From Actinomycetes bacterium (GTDB lineage: Bacteria; Actinomycetota; JAHEXW01): a DNA stretch of 64,000 nt. Within the stretch, counting starts at the first letter, position 1; each line of letters opens with the position of its first letter. A model generated the notes under the pieces. The model was not told where the DNA came from and did no database searches. It worked only from the letters and a program-made list of their open reading frames with translations. The translations under genes and the position numbers were made by a program. The DNA is taken from positions 26,733-90,732 of the forward strand of contig JAHEXW010000004.1 of assembly GCA_023251915.1 (NCBI GenBank), written 5' to 3'. Below are positions 4,650-60,989 of this stretch, one piece after another.

Positions 4650-4659
4650 AAGACAAATC

Positions 4660-4780
4660 GAATAGCGGTGTTCGGCGTCGTAGGGAAGCCTGTGGAAATC
4701 GGGCACGGTCGCGCCACTGTAACCGGGAGATCTGCGTTTACGCGGGTCTCAACGGGAGTCAGGAACCTAACCGAAACACC
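4660..4780 (+). promoter_or_regulatory. cobalamin (AdoCbl) riboswitch aptamer
   Basis: Conserved cores read directly: GGTG..CGG; AGGGAAGCC; GTGGAAATC; CGCGCCACTGTAACCGGGAG (B12 box GCCACTG at 4713-4719); GTCAGGAACCTAACC. The order and spacing match the RF00174 consensus as I remember it. It sits in the 5' leader of CDS 4899. Confidence 0.8.
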
Positions 4781-4827
4781 GGTGAACAGCTACTCTTCGC
4801 GAGATGAGAGGCGGCTTATTTTTATGT

Positions 4828-4898: not shown

Positions 4899-5966
4899 AT
4901 GAAACGGTTTACCGCGGTGACATTGATCATCATGGTTGTTCTGCTGGCCTGGCCGGCGATCGGTGTCCTTGGCGATGTCTCGACGACCTCTGCTGTTAAT
5001 AAGGCGACGGCTTATTTACAGACACAACAACAAAACGACGGCAGCTATACCGAGTTTGACGGGCCGGTCAACGCAACTTGCGGCGCCGGGTTGGCAATCG
5101 CGGCGGCCGGTCTGGACGTCAACAACTGGAAGAAGTCCGGACTTTCAGGGATCGATTTTCTCCTCACGCAAAAGGACGCGTTAAGTAACGCCGCGGACGC
5201 GGACGCTAATTCCGCGAAGATCGCGCAGTTGGTTATGCTACTTGTGGCCAGCGGTAAAGACCCGCACGTTTTTGGCGGCGTCGATTGGGTGGCGATTCTG
5301 AGCGGGACACAAAACGCAGCAACCGGCGCCTATGGCACCGCGTTTATCCGGCACCCCTGGATAATGATGGCGCTGCACGCGGCGAACGAGACGATCCCCG
5401 CTAACGCGATAGACTTCCTTGTTGCCAACCAAGAGAGCAACGGCGGATTTGGCGTCAACGGTTTGGGCTCGGGTTCGGACACCAATACGACAGCGATCTG
5501 CCTGGAGGCGCTGGCGGCGGCCGGGGCGGCGAACGACTCGACAGTGGTTCAAAAAGCCGTTGCTTATCTGCACACTCAGCAGAATTCGGATGGCGGTTTT
5601 CCCTGGGCGAAGCCGTCGCCGTGGGGCACCGATTCCGACGCGAGCTCGACGTCGTGGGTAATCCAGGGATTAATCGCGGCCGGCGAGAACCACACCGGAC
5701 CGGATTGGACCGTATCCGGCCATACACCCGTCAGCTTTCTGCTCGGCATGCAGAACACTAGCGGCGCTTTCGGTTACCAGACAACCTGGTCAGACGACAA
5801 TCTAATGTGTACGTATCAAGCAATCCCCGCGCTTATGGGCAAGACGTTTCCGCTGGACTATACGGCGCCGGTAAGCGGCGATCCTAATCCGGTCACCGCG
5901 CCCGGAGGGACATCAACGCCAAATCCGGCGCAGGATCCTCCCTATCTGCCTTACACAGGCCGATGA
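4899..5966 (+). CDS. secreted alpha/alpha-toroid repeat protein (prenyltransferase/terpene-cyclase-like repeats) ending in LPYTG-R
   Basis: AAAGGAG RBS 7 nt upstream. Signal peptide MKRFTAVTLIIMVVLLAWPAIG. Four Q-x-x-x-(D/G)G-(S/G/A)-(F/Y) repeats (QQQNDGSY, QESNGGFG, QQNSDGGFPW, MQNTSGAFGY). The C-terminus is ...PPYLPYTGR followed by stop. Confidence 0.7.
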   Translation: MKRFTAVTLIIMVVLLAWPAIGVLGDVSTTSAVNKATAYLQTQQQNDGSYTEFDGPVNATCGAGLAIAAAGLDVNNWKKSGLSGIDFLLTQKDALSNAADADANSAKIAQLVMLLVASGKDPHVFGGVDWVAILSGTQNAATGAYGTAFIRHPWIMMALHAANETIPANAIDFLVANQESNGGFGVNGLGSGSDTNTTAICLEALAAAGAANDSTVVQKAVAYLHTQQNSDGGFPWAKPSPWGTDSDASSTSWVIQGLIAAGENHTGPDWTVSGHTPVSFLLGMQNTSGAFGYQTTWSDDNLMCTYQAIPALMGKTFPLDYTAPVSGDPNPVTAPGGTSTPNPAQDPPYLPYTGR

Positions 5967-8235: not shown

Positions 8236-8585
8236 CCGCATTACTAGCCGGATGCCTCGCCTTGGCGTTGGTATTTGTTCCGGTCACGGTGGATATCGGA
8301 ATCATTAATCGATCTCGCGCTCAAGCCGAAGCTACCGCGGACGCCGCCTCACTGGCGGCCGCCCAAGAAATGGTGAGTGGCGGTGATCTGGCCGCAGCCG
8401 CCGCTGAATACGTGGCGAAGAACGGCGGCGCCCTCAAGTCTGTCGTGGTCGAAGGCCGAAGCGTCGTCGTAACCGTGGAGGAGCCTTGCCAGACGATTTT
8501 GGCTGACCGCTTGGGTATAGAAGTTGGTCAGGCGCGGGGTAGAGGCAAAGCGGAACTGAAGGAATTCGATGAGCCGGATTATTAG
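8232..8585 (+). CDS. Tad/TadG-like Flp pilus-assembly protein (N-terminal TM)
   Basis: ATGA overlap with tadE. MTALLAGCLALALVFVPVTVDIG...AEATADAASLAAAQEM is typical of the TadE/G-like family. Start moved from the ORF-track 8148 to the ATG at 8232. Confidence 0.55.
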   Translation: MTALLAGCLALALVFVPVTVDIGIINRSRAQAEATADAASLAAAQEMVSGGDLAAAAAEYVAKNGGALKSVVVEGRSVVVTVEEPCQTILADRLGIEVGQARGRGKAELKEFDEPDY

Positions 8586-9738
8586 GGCTCGCCTTGCCGG
8601 GTCGTTGCTTCTCTTGGTTTTCGGGATGGGATGGGTCGTCATCGGCAAGAACGTTTTAGCTGGCGAAGTTACATTTGTTCGTCCGCTTAACGGGACGACC
8701 GTGTTGCGCTTTGGGCAAACATATACCGATACAACCTCGGGAAAGAAGCGGACTCATCGAGGAGTTGATATATCGGCGGGAGCACAAACGCGGATTACGG
8801 CGGCCGCGGCCGGCCGTGTCTCGTTCGCCGGTCATACACCGCTAGGGAATTGCGTCAGCGTGAAACATGTCAACGGGGTAAAGACAACGTATTTGCCGCT
8901 AGACAAGGTCGCTGTTAGTGCCGGTGATCAAGTTGGGCAAGGCCAGACGATCGGTTATGTCGCAGCCGCGGGCGACCCATCCTGTGCTTCGAGCCATGTC
9001 CACATCGGTGCCATCTTCGCCGCGAAATACATCGACCCGGAAACGCTATGGCGCGGGGAATTCCGAACGGATTTCAGTCGTTTAATAAGGCGCGCCGATA
9101 TTCCGCCCGCCGGCGTTGCCATCGCCTCGACCGGTAACAGTATCTCGACAGCCGGTCCACTGGCGACCGTTGCGCATAACGGCGTCTTCTCGTTTTTTAC
9201 GTGGCTGGCCGGTCTCTGGCGGGGGGCGCAAGGCTTTGTGGCACGCGGCTGGTCTGCCGGTACGGCGTTTCTGCGACGTTTGCTTGATATCGGCGCCAGC
9301 ACTTTTCACTGGTCTAAATCGCTTTGGAAATCAACGCTTTCATTATTTGGACGGCGCGCCTGCGTAGTCGGAAAGAGCAAAGCATTTTGGCCAGCGGTTC
9401 GCGATATTTCGCGATCGGGTATCGGTTATGGGTTAGGCCCGGCCGCACCAGCCGGTTGCCTTTGCCGGCTGGATCCCAGCGGTGACGCTACGTTTCCCGG
9501 AGACAGGGTGACGATTCTCTTAGACTTTGGGACCCGTGCCAGGGGGCTGGACGTCTTCAACAACGACGGCGTCAGGATACGGGTTGTCGAGCGCTGGGAA
9601 GGTAGCGCGCGCGAAATCTCGTGGACAGGCGAAGATGATTCCGGCCGGATCGTACCGAACGGTCTTTATACGATTATCGTGCGCCAAACCAACGGACCCG
9701 GCGCGGGCTGCTTAGTTGAGGTCAAATGGCACTCTTAG
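8569..9738 (+). CDS. M23 (LytM) family metallopeptidase with C-terminal FlgD-Ig-like domain
   Basis: HRGVDI ... GNCVSVKH ... SHVHIG matches the LytM H-x-x-x-D / H-x-H layout. The C-terminal TILLDFGTRARGLDVFNNDGVRIRVV...LYTIIV is FlgD-Ig-like. Confidence 0.75.
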   Translation: MSRIIRARLAGSLLLLVFGMGWVVIGKNVLAGEVTFVRPLNGTTVLRFGQTYTDTTSGKKRTHRGVDISAGAQTRITAAAAGRVSFAGHTPLGNCVSVKHVNGVKTTYLPLDKVAVSAGDQVGQGQTIGYVAAAGDPSCASSHVHIGAIFAAKYIDPETLWRGEFRTDFSRLIRRADIPPAGVAIASTGNSISTAGPLATVAHNGVFSFFTWLAGLWRGAQGFVARGWSAGTAFLRRLLDIGASTFHWSKSLWKSTLSLFGRRACVVGKSKAFWPAVRDISRSGIGYGLGPAAPAGCLCRLDPSGDATFPGDRVTILLDFGTRARGLDVFNNDGVRIRVVERWEGSAREISWTGEDDSGRIVPNGLYTIIVRQTNGPGAGCLVEVKWHS

Positions 9739-11024
9739 CAAGGAAGAGTATAGGGAGAATAGGGATTATTAGGAGTATAAGGAAACATGTCATTGCGAGG
9801 GAGCGTCGCGATCGCGGCAAGCTCATCGGGGTAAAGTGCCTCCCGGTATTCATAATCTCTATACTCCTAATACTCCCGCACCAGGCCCTTGCGTGGGGTT
9901 CCGTGACTCATGCCGCAATCTGCCGGGAGGCCGGCGGCAGCGAAGACTTTGTGTTGGGCGGTATCGCACCGGACATGATTGCACTACATTCTGTGACCAC
10001 GGGTGACTCCTCTTTTGACTACACGCATAACTATTTCGGTGAAGCGCGCGAGCCTGTGTTTGGCAAAATAATGGCGCAAGTGTCAGGTCAAGACTTTTCG
10101 CACGGTTGGGTCGCGCACCAGTTAGCCGATAGTGTGGTTCATGGACCGGACGGTTACTCGAATACAAAAACAGTCTTCGAGAACATCCCGGAAAAGTACA
10201 AACCGACACTTAGTCATGGCGCGGTTGAGCTGATTGTCGACGCGATCGTCCTAGACGAGCTCTATCATCGCAGCGTTGACCTGTGGGTGCCGGATAACGC
10301 AGAGCTTATCCATAGGTCCACCGTCCGTTTCTATAACAGCTACTTGTCCACGGACCTAAAGGTTCCGCGTGCCCACATTATTAACTGCCACACGGCTGCT
10401 GATTTGGCGTATCGCTGGGACTTGTGCTTGAACACCAACAAATACCTGGCTGAACTCATGCTGGAAGAGCCTTGGTTCGCGACCGTGCGTCGGCGCTTCG
10501 AGGACTTCAGACCTCTGTTCGCGCGCTCAGTGGCTCTTGTCGGCAGCCGTGCGTCGGTGACACGTCCTCCCCGCAAAGCCCCGGCCTCCGGCTGGGACAG
10601 GTGGGCCGAACTCTTACCGACCGCAGTCGCCCGTGCCGCGGAGGGCGAAGAGGGCGGAGAGGTTGGTGGAACCGGAGAGCCGGCCGGTTACTATCGATTC
10701 CTAGCGCAACTCGGTGAACGAGCGAAAAGAAACGGACACGGCCATATGACCAAGGAAAGCGTCCGGCAAGCTGCCGTCGAACTTGCCAACAGCAAAGAGA
10801 CGTCAGAGGAGGAAAAGGTTTGGTCGGCGGCAATGGCCGGTCTGACCGATAAACGCACGACTGATCTGCGCCAGGTCAGCCGCCTAATCAGGGAGGCGGG
10901 GAGGCGCTCGTCCGGGAACGGCGCCGCAGGCGGCCTAAAGGATGACGTTCTCCCCTATCTTCCTTGCGGCGCGGCTCTCGGTGTTGTGTTGGCCGCGCTT
11001 GTCTGGATGTTCAAGAAACGATGA
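9726..11024 (+). CDS. secreted zinc-dependent phospholipase C / P1-nuclease superfamily protein with sorting-signal-like C-terminus
   Basis: Signal peptide ending ALA; the predicted mature N-terminus WGSVTHAAI carries the N-terminal Trp that serves as a zinc ligand in this superfamily. His/Asp-rich helices follow. The C-terminal LPYLPCG is followed by 16 hydrophobic residues and KKR. The only in-frame start is 9726, so the N-terminal region is encoded through the palindromic repeat. Confidence 0.6.
   Translation: MALLARKSIGRIGIIRSIRKHVIARERRDRGKLIGVKCLPVFIISILLILPHQALAWGSVTHAAICREAGGSEDFVLGGIAPDMIALHSVTTGDSSFDYTHNYFGEAREPVFGKIMAQVSGQDFSHGWVAHQLADSVVHGPDGYSNTKTVFENIPEKYKPTLSHGAVELIVDAIVLDELYHRSVDLWVPDNAELIHRSTVRFYNSYLSTDLKVPRAHIINCHTAADLAYRWDLCLNTNKYLAELMLEEPWFATVRRRFEDFRPLFARSVALVGSRASVTRPPRKAPASGWDRWAELLPTAVARAAEGEEGGEVGGTGEPAGYYRFLAQLGERAKRNGHGHMTKESVRQAAVELANSKETSEEEKVWSAAMAGLTDKRTTDLRQVSRLIREAGRRSSGNGAAGGLKDDVLPYLPCGAALGVVLAALVWMFKKR
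9773..9871 (+). repeat. palindromic element (arms ATTATTAGGAGTATA / TATACTCCTAATACT) enclosing a GTCATTGCGAGG plus GC-hairpin unit
   Basis: Perfect 11-13 bp inverted arms at 9773-9787 and 9857-9871. The core GTCATTGCGAGG is at 9788-9799, followed by GAGCgtcgcgatcgcggcaaGCTC. Confidence 0.6.
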
Positions 11025-25653: not shown

Positions 25654-26095
25654 GGTGGGCCCGTTCTCGGGCTTAGTCATCTGCATGTAGCGATCTACCA
25701 CGCACGAGATTAGCTGGCAAAGTGGGCCTCGTGTCAGTTCCTGCGATTTGGCTTGGCGGGCCGAATGCCAGGATGACCGTTCGCATGTTTCTGCCGCCCC
25801 AGGATGAACCGTTTACTGAAAGGTTTCCGCGACGGCTGGCCTGCCGGCCGTAGCGACCGAGAAGACGGAGGCCGTCAGGCTGGAGTTTGTCCGCGAAGGC
25901 TGGTGGGCCCGTTCTCGGACTTCGCCTCGCCTGTCAAAATGGGAGGTTGCTTCGTCACTTCATTCCTCGCAATGACCGAATGACGCGACCCTCGGTTGCT
26001 CACGACTCGAATATCGCTCCTTCGGACCGAGTTCGAGTCAAGCAAGGCAACATTTCTAGGAAATATCGGAAGATATTCCTCAGGGATGGTGGGCC
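25654..26095 (-). repeat. array of three degenerate copies of the tRNA-Ile 3' end (TGGTGGGCCC...), putative att-site remnants
   Basis: Plus-strand TGGTGGGCCCG at 25654 and 25901, and TGGTGGGCC at 26087. The first two share 22 nt. The copy at 26087 and the true tRNA end at 26286 are each followed by a hairpin (GGAAATATCggaaGATATTCC and AGAAATACC...GGTATTTCT). Confidence 0.5.
25941..25976 (-). repeat. GTCATTGCGAGG-family repeat copy (minus orientation)
   Basis: Plus strand gggaggttgcttcgtcacttcattcctcgcaatgac equals the rc of GTCATTGCGAGGaatgaaGTGACGAAGCAACCTCCC. Confidence 0.5.
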
Positions 26096-26143
26096 TCGGG
26101 ACTTTCAGGCACGATTCTTCCTGGATTTGAAAGCATCGTGAGG

Positions 26144-26185
26144 GCTTGCCGCGTCGGTCGCCTTGGGCGACCTCCTCGCAATGAC
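26144..26185 (-). repeat. GTCATTGCGAGG-family repeat copy with GGTCGCC-caa-GGCGACC hairpin (minus orientation)
   Basis: rc reads GTCATTGCGAGGaGGTCGCCcaaGGCGACCgaCGCGGCAAGC. It shares CGCGGCAAGC with the copy at 9788. Confidence 0.5.
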
Positions 26186-26285
26186 GCACTATTGCGCCCC
26201 CTGGCGCAAACCGTTCAAACAGACTCTCGAAACGCAAAATCCCTTAGAAATACCCACTGTGAAAGGTTGTGGTATTTCTAAGGGA

Positions 26286-26362
26286 TGGTGGGCCCGGACC
26301 GACTCGAACGGTCGACCTCACCCTTATCAGGGGTGCGCTCTAGCCAACTGAGCTACGGGCCC
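26286..26362 (-). tRNA. tRNA-Ile (anticodon GAT), CCA encoded
   Basis: rc is GGGCCCGTAGCTCAGTTGGCTAGAGCGCACCCCTGATAAGGGTGAGGTCGACCGTTCGAGTCGGTCCGGGCCCACCA. It forms a cloverleaf, with anticodon loop CT-GAT-AA and T-loop GTTCGAGTC. Confidence 0.9.
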
Positions 26363-59293: not shown

Positions 59294-59304
59294 AGACGCG
59301 CTAC

Positions 59305-59340
59305 GTCATTGCTAGGAGCGCAGTGACGAAGCAACCTCCC
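59305..59340 (+). repeat. GTCATTGCGAGG-family repeat copy (variant GTCATTGCTAGG) between larC and larB
   Basis: GTCATTGCTAGGAgcgcaGTGACGAAGCAACCTCCC. Confidence 0.5.
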
Positions 59341-59341
59341 C

Positions 59342-60118
59342 TCATCCTATAGTCTGCTTGTTTATGGTTGCCGCGATGTACCCGGCGCCGAACCCGTTGT
59401 CGATGTTGACGACACTGACGCCGGGAGCGCAGCTGGTTAGCATACCTAAAAGCGCTGTGACACCGCCGAAACTGGCTCCGTAGCCGACGCTCGTTGGAAC
59501 CGCGATAACCGGGCATGACGCCACACCGCCGACCAGACTGGGTAAGGCGCCCTCCATGCCGGCGACCGCTACTATGGCCCGCGCTTCGTTGATGATATCG
59601 AGGTTGGCAAAAAGCCGGTGTGCACCGGCCACACCTGCGTCGTATACGCGAGTCACCTTCGCGCCCATCGTCTCCGCTGTAAAGGCGGCTTCCTCGGCTA
59701 TCGGCATATCGGTTGTGCCGGCCGAAATGACAACAACATTGCCGACCGCGAGCACCTGATCCCGCCCGGGTATGACAACTAAACGGGCGACCGCGTGATA
59801 GATTGCTGTCGGAGCGCCCGCGAGCGCTGCCGCGAACGCGGCTGCGTCAGCTTTAGTGAGCATGACCGGCTGGCCGTGACGCGCCAGTTCAACTACGATT
59901 TTGGTAATCTGCGCGGGGGTTTTGCCGGGACAGTAGACAACTTCGGAAAAGCCGCAGCGCAGGGAACGGTGGTTGTCTATCTTGGCGTCACCCAGGTCCT
60001 CGTAAGGCATGCCCTTGAGGCGCTCGACCGCGGCTTCCACTGACACGCTGCCAGCCTGAATGTCTCTAAGTAGTTTTTCTATCTGTGTCTTATCCATTTT
60101 CACGCTCAACGCCATCAA
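59342..60118 (-). CDS. larB: LarB (PurE-like P2CMN synthase for the NPN cofactor)
   Basis: PurE-like fold, VVVISAGTTDMP ... AVAGMEGALPS... The start may be M8 at 60097. Confidence 0.75.
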   Translation of the reverse strand: MMALSVKMDKTQIEKLLRDIQAGSVSVEAAVERLKGMPYEDLGDAKIDNHRSLRCGFSEVVYCPGKTPAQITKIVVELARHGQPVMLTKADAAAFAAALAGAPTAIYHAVARLVVIPGRDQVLAVGNVVVISAGTTDMPIAEEAAFTAETMGAKVTRVYDAGVAGAHRLFANLDIINEARAIVAVAGMEGALPSLVGGVASCPVIAVPTSVGYGASFGGVTALLGMLTSCAPGVSVVNIDNGFGAGYIAATINKQTIG

Positions 60119-60989
60119 AACGCTCTACGTCATTGCGAGGAGCCTGGTTTCTAGGCGACGAAGCAACCTCCCGAGAAGCAACCTCACTATTCATGCTCCC
60201 CATCTTATAACCAGTTGAGGCGATTTCGATGCGGGCAAAATCCAAGTCGCATAGAAAGGAGTTGACTGCCGACCAGTCCGCGTGCAAGGCCGGCACTTGC
60301 TCCGGCGCCACCTCGATGCGGGCTTCGATATCATCGAGCAGACGGAGGCGAACATTACGAAAGCCGCGCTCCCGCAGAAATGTCTCGCCCCGGTTGATTC
60401 TCATGAGGCGGCTGGACGTAACTCGGCGGCCGAAAGCGATACGGCTGGCCAGACACGGCGCAGCTTCCCGGTCCCAGTTGGGTAACCCGAGGGCTCGAGC
60501 CAACTCTCGCACGGCCTGTTTGTCTAGTCCGGCTTCCAGCAAGGGATGGACTATGCCCATCTCCCGAGCGGCCTCCAGCCCCGGGCGGGTGTCGGACAGG
60601 TCGTCGACGTTGACTCCTTCGAGAATGGCGACAACATTGGATCCTGTTGCCACCTTCATCATGTCCGAGTACATTTGCCGCCGGCAATGATAGCAGCGGT
60701 CCGTATTATTGGCCGCGGCGGCCTCAATTTCCAGGAAACTTGCGCAGATTACCCGATGGCTGACGTCGAGCTGTTCGGCCAGACGGACAGCCTGATCAAT
60801 ATCAGAATCAGGGGTTACTTCGGTCTGCCAAGTGACCGCGGTAAGGTCGCCCGCCAAAGCGTCGCGCGCGGCTGCCAGCAAAAGCGCGCTGTCGGTTCCT
60901 CCGGAAAAGGCGACGATGGCGCCGGGATGGGGTTCTATGCGGTGTTTAAGCAGTTCATAACGTTTATCAACCAACATAAGCATCATCAT
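60090..60989 (-). CDS. larE: LarE (PP-loop ATP pyrophosphatase, sacrificial sulfur transferase)
   Basis: PP-loop VAFSGGTDSALL. The C-terminal about 30 aa (…ASREVASSPRNQAPRND…) are encoded through the repeat element and are probably non-native. Confidence 0.75.
   Translation of the reverse strand: MMMLMLVDKRYELLKHRIEPHPGAIVAFSGGTDSALLLAAARDALAGDLTAVTWQTEVTPDSDIDQAVRLAEQLDVSHRVICASFLEIEAAAANNTDRCYHCRRQMYSDMMKVATGSNVVAILEGVNVDDLSDTRPGLEAAREMGIVHPLLEAGLDKQAVRELARALGLPNWDREAAPCLASRIAFGRRVTSSRLMRINRGETFLRERGFRNVRLRLLDDIEARIEVAPEQVPALHADWSAVNSFLCDLDFARIEIASTGYKMGSMNSEVASREVASSPRNQAPRNDVERFDGVERENG
60129..60172 (+). repeat. GTCATTGCGAGG-family repeat copy at the larB/larE junction
   Basis: GTCATTGCGAGGAgcctggtttctaggcGACGAAGCAACCTCCC, followed by a partial GAGAAGCAACCTC duplication. 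Confidence 0.5.

Follow-up and report, generated by a model that had tools for sequence, protein, structure and literature searches.

A repetitive extragenic palindrome (REP)-like repeat within the predicted leader region of a phospholipase C-like gene

Architecture of the leader-coding region

We analyzed a 64,000-nucleotide (nt) stretch of the genome of an Actinomycetes bacterium (contig JAHEXW010000004.1, positions 26,733 to 90,732 of the forward strand; hereafter, the window), which contains a gene for a phospholipase C (PLC)-like enzyme with a predicted signal peptide. The 5' end of this gene, at 9760-9875, carries a pair of inverted arms enclosing a short sequence that is dispersed in the window, and this arrangement is the subject of the present work. 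The signal peptide is predicted to span 56 codons (9726-9893, + strand), with an n-region (residues 1-38), an h-region (LPVFIISILLIL), a c-region (PHQALA), and cleavage before W57. By inspection, it has the features of a Sec-type signal peptide, namely a positively charged n-region (12 K/R and 2 D/E, net charge +10), the hydrophobic segment, and A-L-A immediately before W57. A Tat signal, prompted by the motif ERRDRGK, was considered and rejected on inspection only, both the motif and its spacing to the h-region being unsuitable.

The initial annotation of this region had placed perfect inverted arms at 9773 and 9857. Arms do exist, but they are larger than described and lie at 9765-9779 (ATTATTAGGAGTATA) and 9860-9874 (TATACTCCTAATACT), where 14 of 15 positions are complementary. 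Perfect pairing extends over 13 nt (TATTAGGAGTATA, 9767-9779 with 9860-9872), and the best extended pair (9762-9779 and 9860-9877) covers 18 nt at 94%. The left arm (9742-9783, + strand) is built of four 9-nt units, GAGTATAGG, GAGAATAGG, GATTATTAG, and GAGTATAAG, which are read as ..SIG RIG IIR SIR K in the basic n-region. The right arm (9846-9877, + strand) comprises about three inverted 9-nt units that form the h-region codons V F I I S I L L I L P, so that the proposal of a right arm encoding the hydrophobic core of the signal peptide is borne out. The whole stretch from 9740 to 9885 folds at -56 kcal/mol, with z = -4.9 against dinucleotide shuffles and z = -3.5 against codon shuffles inside each half. 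At 9774-9788, the residues RSIRK resemble the YSIRK motif of some Gram-positive signal peptides; this likeness is probably coincidental, a by-product of the AGT ATA AGG AAA unit.

Between the arms, the core GTCATTGCGAGG is located at 9789-9800. It is part of a single REP-like unit (9787-9825, + strand) with a TGTC tag, an ATTGC..GCAA outer stem, a GAGG internal loop, an inner hairpin, and a diverged 3' half. The inner hairpin (GTCGC/GATC/GCGGC, 9805-9818, + strand) corresponds to the GC hairpin noticed initially, and its position covaries across the repeat family. The unit encodes approximately residues 21-34 of the leader (HVIARERRDRGKLI). A 15-codon open reading frame (ORF) in another frame (MSLRGSVAIAASSSG; 9787-9834, + strand, stop codon at 9832-9834) starts at the ATG at the palindrome apex, behind AAGGA, and this out-of-frame ATG at 9787 may act as a decoy start. 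Within the window, the arms and their 9-mer are clustered at this locus only, and the other four copies of the core have unrelated flanks and no arms; hence, the idea that arms and core form one repeated unit does not hold. No target-site duplication or direct repeat is visible around the arms and core.

Orthologous loci and the translation start

A total of 14 relatives were found, and DNA was obtained for 12 further loci; the comparison covers 13 orthologous loci, with 97.7 kb of sequence. A metagenome scan for more orthologues added just two useful loci (L011 and L012), and the sample for covariation is therefore small. The gene order, M23 peptidase followed by the PLC-like gene and PC4, is kept at all orthologous loci. 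In the window, the upstream M23 peptidase gene (8569-9738, + strand; Pfam PF01551, 77 bits), whose product has a FlgD-Ig-like C-terminal domain, ends in codons (..E V K W H S stop) that include the Shine-Dalgarno sequence and start codon of the PLC-like gene. These initiation signals (9718-9728, + strand) consist of a ribosome-binding site, GAGG at 9718-9721, and ATG at 9726-9728, and they overlap the M23 gene end, whose stop codon TAG is at 9736-9738. This overlap suggests translational coupling.

Comparison of these loci bears directly on where translation begins. The ATG at 9726 is the sole in-frame ATG, GTG, or TTG upstream of the mature Trp codon at 9894, in agreement with the initial statement that the frame used here is the only possible one for the N-terminus. 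Its context, GAGGTCAAATGGCAC at 9718-9732, is identical over 15 nt to the start context of L005, in which the two genes are not separated by intergenic DNA and the PLC-like gene starts at an ATG within the last M23 codons; the sole alternative start upstream in L005 is a TTG deep within the M23 coding sequence, which is not usable. An overlapping ATG in frame with the mature Trp is present in 12 of the 13 loci, the exception being L004, in which a GTG overlapping the stop codon serves as start. The distance from ATG to Trp is a multiple of three in all 12 loci, in spite of 11 distinct lengths ranging from 69 to 213 nt. Moreover, the N-terminal extensions contain no stop in 318 codons of the gene frame, the two remaining frames having 25 and 20. 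These frame and stop counts were taken from the DNA of the 12 loci directly and are independent of gene calls. No start other than the overlapping ATG gives a complete leader in the window, L005, L007, L008, or L025. In addition, the extensions share a basic motif with a period of three residues in one frame (SIG RIG IIR SIR K; KSTKSTRITKSTK; ITRITKSTK; EIMKSMRIIGSIK).

On this comparative evidence, the annotated start at ATG 9726 is very probably right, and the suspicion of a wrong N-terminus with an unusual start is not sustained by the context shared with L005 and the conserved, stop-free frame of the 12 loci. Since this frame runs from the overlapping ATG to the Trp codon, the repeat is very probably translated as about 13 residues of a cleaved 56-residue leader. 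Gene callers place the start differently at some loci; for instance, the call for L002 was placed at the fourth in-frame ATG. In L011 (2360-2519 of contig Ga0265292_1000002), the NCBI protein (P0013) starts with MIALNS.., inside the mature enzyme, and the DNA has the overlapping ATG, the extension, the h-region, and AQA followed by WGS in full. The start of P0013 was probably mis-called because of the repeat-bearing extension.

The mature protein (9894-11024, + strand) is zinc-PLC/P1-nuclease-like, with the helical zinc-enzyme fold of zinc-dependent phospholipase C and S1-P1 nuclease. In this fold, the Trp at the mature N-terminus is a zinc ligand, as established for the PLC of B. cereus, and a cleaved leader would therefore be necessary. 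AxA followed by WG[SA][IV]TH is conserved throughout the PLC-like orthologues. The 432-codon ORF is intact and holds every family-invariant residue; the same 432-aa product results from the NCBI, ENA, and Logan gene calls, and the identical sequence was found again in independent assemblies. At the other end of the protein, the window version carries an LPYLPC motif, a membrane-spanning segment, and a KKR tail (LPYLPCGAALGVVLAALVWMFKKR). Across the family, the C-terminus consists of a conserved (F)LPxLP(C/G) motif with a hydrophobic segment and then a basic tail behind it (window positions approximately 10930-11021; alignment columns 460-496). This ending resembles a signal for sorting or anchoring at the C-terminus.

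L002, at 65% identity the nearest orthologue on a long contig, possesses the left-arm units and the right arm with no core between them (..GAGATTATGAA GAGTATGAG GATTATAGG GAGTATAAA AATG CTCTTGG TTTTTATAATCCCTATGCTCTTTATAATCCTAATACTCCCC..), and its fold is stronger than that of the window (z = -5.3 with dinucleotide shuffles and -4.7 with codon shuffles). The left arm is absent from L004 and L005, in which the periodic right arm is still present; indeed, the right arm, being the h-region, occurs in all orthologues. Among the 146 fetched loci, the related 9-mer GGAGTATAR is multi-copy solely at the orthologous sites. Because L002 has the palindrome without the core, and because the arms are not repeated elsewhere, the arms are not transposon ends. 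Judged from the two sequences, the difference between the window and L002 is an insertion at the apex of an older palindrome.

Pairing between the two halves was also assessed at the other loci against codon shuffles within each half. The z values are -4.7 in L002, -3.6 in L024, -3.5 in the window, -3.3 in L026, -2.4 in L007, and -2.1 in L009; pairing is not significant in L008, L010, L011, and L025. The arms vary by lineage and yet stay complementary. In L024, perfect helices are formed by GAGTACGA/TCGTACTC and GAGTACTA/TAGTACTC, matching the position of GAGTAT/ATACTC in the window, and the arms of L009 and L026 are of the AAAAACCAAA/TTTGGTTTTT type. Since the helices of L024 and the window differ but pair, the choice of Thr or Ile in the n-region goes along with that of Val or Ile in the h-region. 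Such correlated change of both coding halves of a signal peptide may be worth more than the insertion itself. Further examination of L009 (6532-6660) and L026 (1266-1380) revealed that their extensions consist of long K/N/Q/P-rich short tandem repeats (AAACCAAAAACC.. and AATAAACAATAAACC..), which are the reverse complement of TTTGGTTTTTGT.. h-region codons; n-region and h-region thus stand in the same antisense relation as those of the window, with another sequence as its basis.

Across the 97.7 kb of the 13 loci, significant matches to a covariance model of the repeat family (described below) are confined to the junction between the M23 and PLC-like genes. L011 (2406-2446, 26.9 bits) carries the repeat in the orientation and frame of the window. 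In L006 (5013-5058, 29 bits), the repeat is inverted and is followed by a different second hairpin repeat (CCCTCTCCCTTGGAGGGGAGAGGGCTGGGGTGAGGGT, 5090-5130), which is read in frame as PLPWRGEGWGEG. L010 (170-188) has a partial match of 16.4 bits whose outer stem has apparently been altered on both sides (CTTCGA../..TCGAGAAG). Thus, a comparison of orthologues for presence or absence of the insert, which had been proposed as a check, gave a mixed outcome: the core is absent from the same position of L002, and related repeats are present at the site in L006, L010, and L011. The carriers belong to three different clades, each of which includes members without the repeat. The mature proteins of L006 and L007 are 85% identical, while their extensions are wholly different and only L006 carries the repeat; compared with its sister L024, L010 has approximately 81 additional nt at the apex of the palindrome. 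Because the carriers span three clades and these pairs differ, the sequences point to at least two independent insertion events, and probably to three or more.

The dispersed repeat family

Allowing at most one mismatch, the core GTCATTGCGAGG has five copies in the window against 0.32 expected, and its description as dispersed is thereby confirmed. When a covariance model was constructed with 85 units, all of them from other genomes and none from the window, it matched exactly five window sites, including the one in the leader. The others are located within the 3' end of a minus-strand LarE ORF (60127-60171, + strand, 47.8 bits), downstream of tRNA-Ile (26141-26187 and 25942-25978, both - strand, 45.3 and 43.0 bits, respectively), and between two minus-strand genes (59303-59339, + strand, 34.4 bits). 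A genome scan restricted to one genome per species, with the pattern GTCATTGCGAGG-N(3-33)-GACGMRGCAA, yielded at least 120 stretches (loci L027-L146) with 136 units. Among the matches listed, the phyla and groups represented are Alpha- and Gammaproteobacteria, Bacteroidota, Chloroflexota, Patescibacteria, Planctomycetota, Zixibacteria, Nitrospirota, Melainabacteria, Firmicutes, and others, and the genera and groups with a near-identical core include Bradyrhizobium, Pedobacter, Chryseobacterium, and Oscillospiraceae.

The general plan of the family is (C/T)GTC-ATTGCGAGG-[covarying hairpin]-GACGMRGCAA-tail. In the 136 units among the matches listed, (C/T)GTCATTGCGAGGA is the conserved 5' part and GACGAAGCAATCCAG the conserved 3' part, and the middle hairpin is variable in both length and sequence, often being a GCGAAGC mini-hairpin. 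Covariation of the inner hairpin was evident from 68 double-change cells, compared with 24.6 for shuffled data (none of 500 shuffles reached the observed count), with all slid controls lower. The outer stem, ATTGC/GCAAT, has only 4-5 bp, the first A-T pair being lost in the window copies, and is followed by the internal loop and then by a second hairpin, whose length varies. With regard to the 5' tag, a C precedes GTC in about 63% of the 136 units from other genomes; in the window, the tag is TGTC at 9788-9791, CGTC in the copies at 59303, 60127, and 26187, and GGTC in the copy at 25978. TCCA follows GCAA in 56 of the 136 units, and the window copies end in CCTCC or, at 9822-9825, CTCA.

An inverted partner lies no more than 140 nt away from 88 of the 136 units among the matches listed, and all five window copies are singlets. 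Flanks are mutually unrelated across the 136 units of other genomes. Long open frames are depleted of units (0.36 versus 0.79 for random positions). No repeat match was obtained in the window at the Rfam gathering threshold, and 9650-9950 gave only noise (E > 3); Rfam likewise had no match on 12 loci with typical doublets. Full-text literature searches with the core sequence and its reverse complement retrieved only unrelated primers, one of which was checked in PMC8066302. A reading of the GAGGA/GACGAA loop as a k-turn or hammerhead-like motif was rejected by inspection only, strand lengths and conserved residues being unsuitable. A core that is near-identical across very many phyla, combined with a covarying hairpin and a purine-rich internal loop and absent from Rfam, may also be worth more than the insertion in the PLC-like gene.

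Two surroundings of the other window copies deserve description. The minus-strand LarE-like gene (60090-60989) agrees with the whole length of the NCBIfam LarE model until residue 267 (..GSMN). Its ORF has 32 further residues (SEVASREVASSPRNQAPRNDVERFDGVERENG, then the stop codon), which are the reverse-strand reading of the copy at 60127-60171 and a spacer, and its end overlaps the start of the next gene. This is a second case in the window of a repeat inside an ORF. Downstream of tRNA-Ile (26286-26362), at 25888-26294 on the minus strand, the last approximately 22 nt of the tRNA region (GGCCCACCATCCCT..) occur three times, with spacings of 186 and 199 nt. The two units between these repeats each contain a small hairpin and one REP-like copy, and the arrangement resembles either a tandem duplication or what is left of stacked attachment sites. 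Elsewhere in the window, a cobalamin riboswitch was detected at 4656-4790 (+ strand; 35.7 bits versus an Rfam gathering threshold of 31.5), which is unrelated to the PLC-like leader.

Competing explanations and comparison with known repeat systems

The explanation that we favor, with a probability of roughly three in four, is that a REP-like singlet occupies, in frame, the apex of a gene-specific palindrome older than the insertion, inside a long cleaved leader. The codons of the n-region, in 9-nt (3-codon) units of the GAGTATAGG type, are the reverse complement of h-region codons of the CCTATACTC type, which generates an imperfect palindrome; this palindrome predates the insertion of the approximately 39-nt repeat at its apex. 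Translation would proceed from ATG 9726 through both arms and the repeat between them, presumably coupled to that of the M23 gene, and the repeat would be read as approximately 13 extra, mostly basic residues (HVIARERRDRGKL) of a Sec-type leader cut before Trp57. If the n-region needs positive charge only and is then discarded, it would behave like intergenic DNA for such repeats. Only in-frame, stop-free insertions would survive selection, and the site would be a rare permissive stretch in a tight operon. A permissive, discarded n-region would explain related repeats at this spot in four orthologues, the window included. Preferential targeting of palindromes by the family was dropped in favor of a permissive site, because, for 47 singlets, complementarity between the two flanks did not exceed that of mismatched flanks (p = 0.65); flanks of doublets are slightly more complementary than mismatched ones, possibly owing to imprecise boundaries. 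The notion of a mobile or REP-like element exapted into coding sequence is thus right as to a REP-like repeat in coding sequence, which is very probably translated. It fails as to the arms, which L002 shows not to be ends of a miniature inverted-repeat transposable element (MITE), and "exapted" exceeds the data; "tolerated in a permissive, cleaved-off segment" fits better.

Several points weigh against this explanation. The unit at 9787-9825 is the weakest of the five window matches, at 23.2 bits and an E-value of about 8e-4, E-values here being rough because of a shortened calibration. The repeats of the window and L011, which share site, orientation, and frame, could be one old event. The apex position of the repeat is accounted for only by the site being permissive. 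At 56 residues, 38 of them in the n-region, the leader is unusually long, and the support for both the translation start and secretion is comparative throughout.

If the palindrome were a conserved functional mRNA hairpin, acting for example on mRNA stability or by restricting translation of the PLC-like gene to ribosomes that come from the M23 gene, the REP copy would be a passenger in its apical loop. This is compatible with the insertion reading, and we regard it as possible, if tentative: pairing is significant in six loci against the codon-preserving null, lineage-specific arms remain complementary, and the sense strand has several G-U pairs and no A-C pairs. However, the hairpin is not universal, since two loci lack the left arm and pairing is not significant in four others; purine-rich basic codons and pyrimidine-rich hydrophobic codons are complementary through the genetic code itself; template-switch repair can keep quasi-palindromes complementary without selection; and no terminator-like U-run follows the hairpin. 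A more ambitious version, which we consider rather doubtful, would have a selected mRNA structure in a secreted-enzyme family in which the two halves of the signal peptide pair, the n-region is partly an "antisense shadow" of the h-region, the hairpin gates translation to M23 ribosomes, and the loop is the single spot where REPs can settle harmlessly, as would have occurred at least three times.

The remaining alternatives concern the coding status of the region or the nature of the arms. The N-terminus might be misannotated, with 9739-9830 being untranslated and carrying a REP that acts post-transcriptionally, and with a non-canonical start near the h-region, such as ATC 9825. A start there would give a leader of textbook length (M-GVKCLPVFIISILLILPHQALA), and the 2013 REP survey (PMC3733652) holds many REPs at predicted N-termini to be truly extragenic. 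This appears very unlikely, given the lack of ATG, GTG, or TTG and of any Shine-Dalgarno-like sequence before 9825, the conserved stop-free frame from the overlapping ATG, and the loci L005, L007, L008, and L025, in which that ATG is the sole start with a complete leader. It is highly improbable that the insertion crippled the gene, i.e., that the ancestral start was the apex ATG and that the enzyme is no longer made or exported. Where the left arm ends in L002, L010, L011, and L024, an in-frame ATG does follow a run rich in purines, and the corresponding ATG of the window (9787) is out of frame and meets the stop at 9832-9834; but the upstream ATG is in frame, the 432-codon ORF with its family-invariant residues is kept, and the same sequence recurs in independent assemblies. 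Scarcely credible, finally, is a MITE-like element with the AT-rich arms as terminal inverted repeats, inserted as a unit with the core as cargo. The 18-nt, 94% inverted repeat around a dispersed core was what spoke for it. Against it stand the arms without core in L002, the right arm being the ancestral h-region in all orthologues, the lack of further arm copies in the window or the 146 fetched loci apart from the orthologous sites, the four armless core copies, and the lack of a visible target-site duplication. Terminal inverted repeats that travel with the unit and a target-site duplication, by which a MITE is recognized, were both not found at 9760-9875.

With insertion into the n-region as the preferred explanation, the locus is a clean, comparatively documented example of short selfish repeats entering coding sequence, and the n-region of a signal peptide may be regarded as a neutral landing strip on which in-frame, stop-free, non-acidic inserts survive. 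It also holds a lesson for annotation, in that callers disagree on starts (L002 and P0013) and a comparative test of the frame decides. The case belongs to a known kind, since intragenic REPs and in-frame palindromic elements of Rickettsia have been described already; its added interest lies in the reuse of the site in orthologues and in the correlated evolution of the two leader-coding halves.

Rickettsia palindromic elements (RPEs) were reportedly found by Ogata et al. in 2000 to be inserted in frame in protein genes, translated, and tolerated where the fold is undisturbed; RPE-1 is said to be approximately 100-150 bp long and restricted to one lineage. The repeat described here is likewise small, palindromic, in frame, and probably translated, a likeness in description. 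It differs in that the insert is only approximately 39 nt and lies in a leader that would be removed, so that the repeat need not suit the mature fold. With respect to the arms, quasi-palindrome template-switch mutagenesis (the Ripley model) keeps drifting inverted arms complementary without selection; it is a mutational mechanism rather than an element. Template switching of this type may match the changes between Thr and Ile in the n-region that track those between Val and Ile in the h-region.

REPINs have GTAG as their tag, are linked to a RAYT gene, and show vertical inheritance within genera (Bertels and Rainey 2011; PMC3116915). The common form of the present family, two inverted units with a spacer of 0-73 nt that form a long hairpin, is similar, and its singlets resemble decayed halves. 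Unlike REPINs, the family has a core that is near-identical across many phyla, and the copy at 9787-9825 is a singlet.

The closest resemblance is to CGTC-tagged REPs (Di Nocera, De Gregorio, Rocco 2013, BMC Genomics 14:522; PMC3733652). According to that survey, these have a CGTC/TGTC tag (variant CCTC), a stem of 8-9 bp starting with A-T, a loop of 4-5 nt, and a CCA-type tail; they are mostly head-to-head dimers, dispersed and mainly extragenic, and were reported from five phyla in 2013, with no dedicated transposase known. Some CGTC- and GTAG-tagged REPs are located in ORFs, often at the N-terminus, and some inside palindromes. As far as this published description reaches, the present family shares with CGTC REPs the unpaired CGTC/TGTC tag, the ATTGC..GCAAT stem start, the predominance of head-to-head pairs, the occurrence in several phyla, and the presence of some copies in ORFs and some in palindromes; the consensus tail of the family, ..GCAATCCAG, may correspond to the CCA type. 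On the same footing, it departs from them in the 4-5 bp outer stem, the purine-rich internal loop (GAGGA/GACGAA), and the second, covarying hairpin of variable length; in addition, the five window copies are all singlets with CCTCC or CTCA tails, unlike typical CGTC REPs, and among the matches listed the core is spread wider than the five phyla reported. Because the internal loop and second hairpin lie outside the published description, with which the comparison was made, the core is termed REP-like and not assigned to any named family; set against that description, it resembles a REP of the CGTC type.

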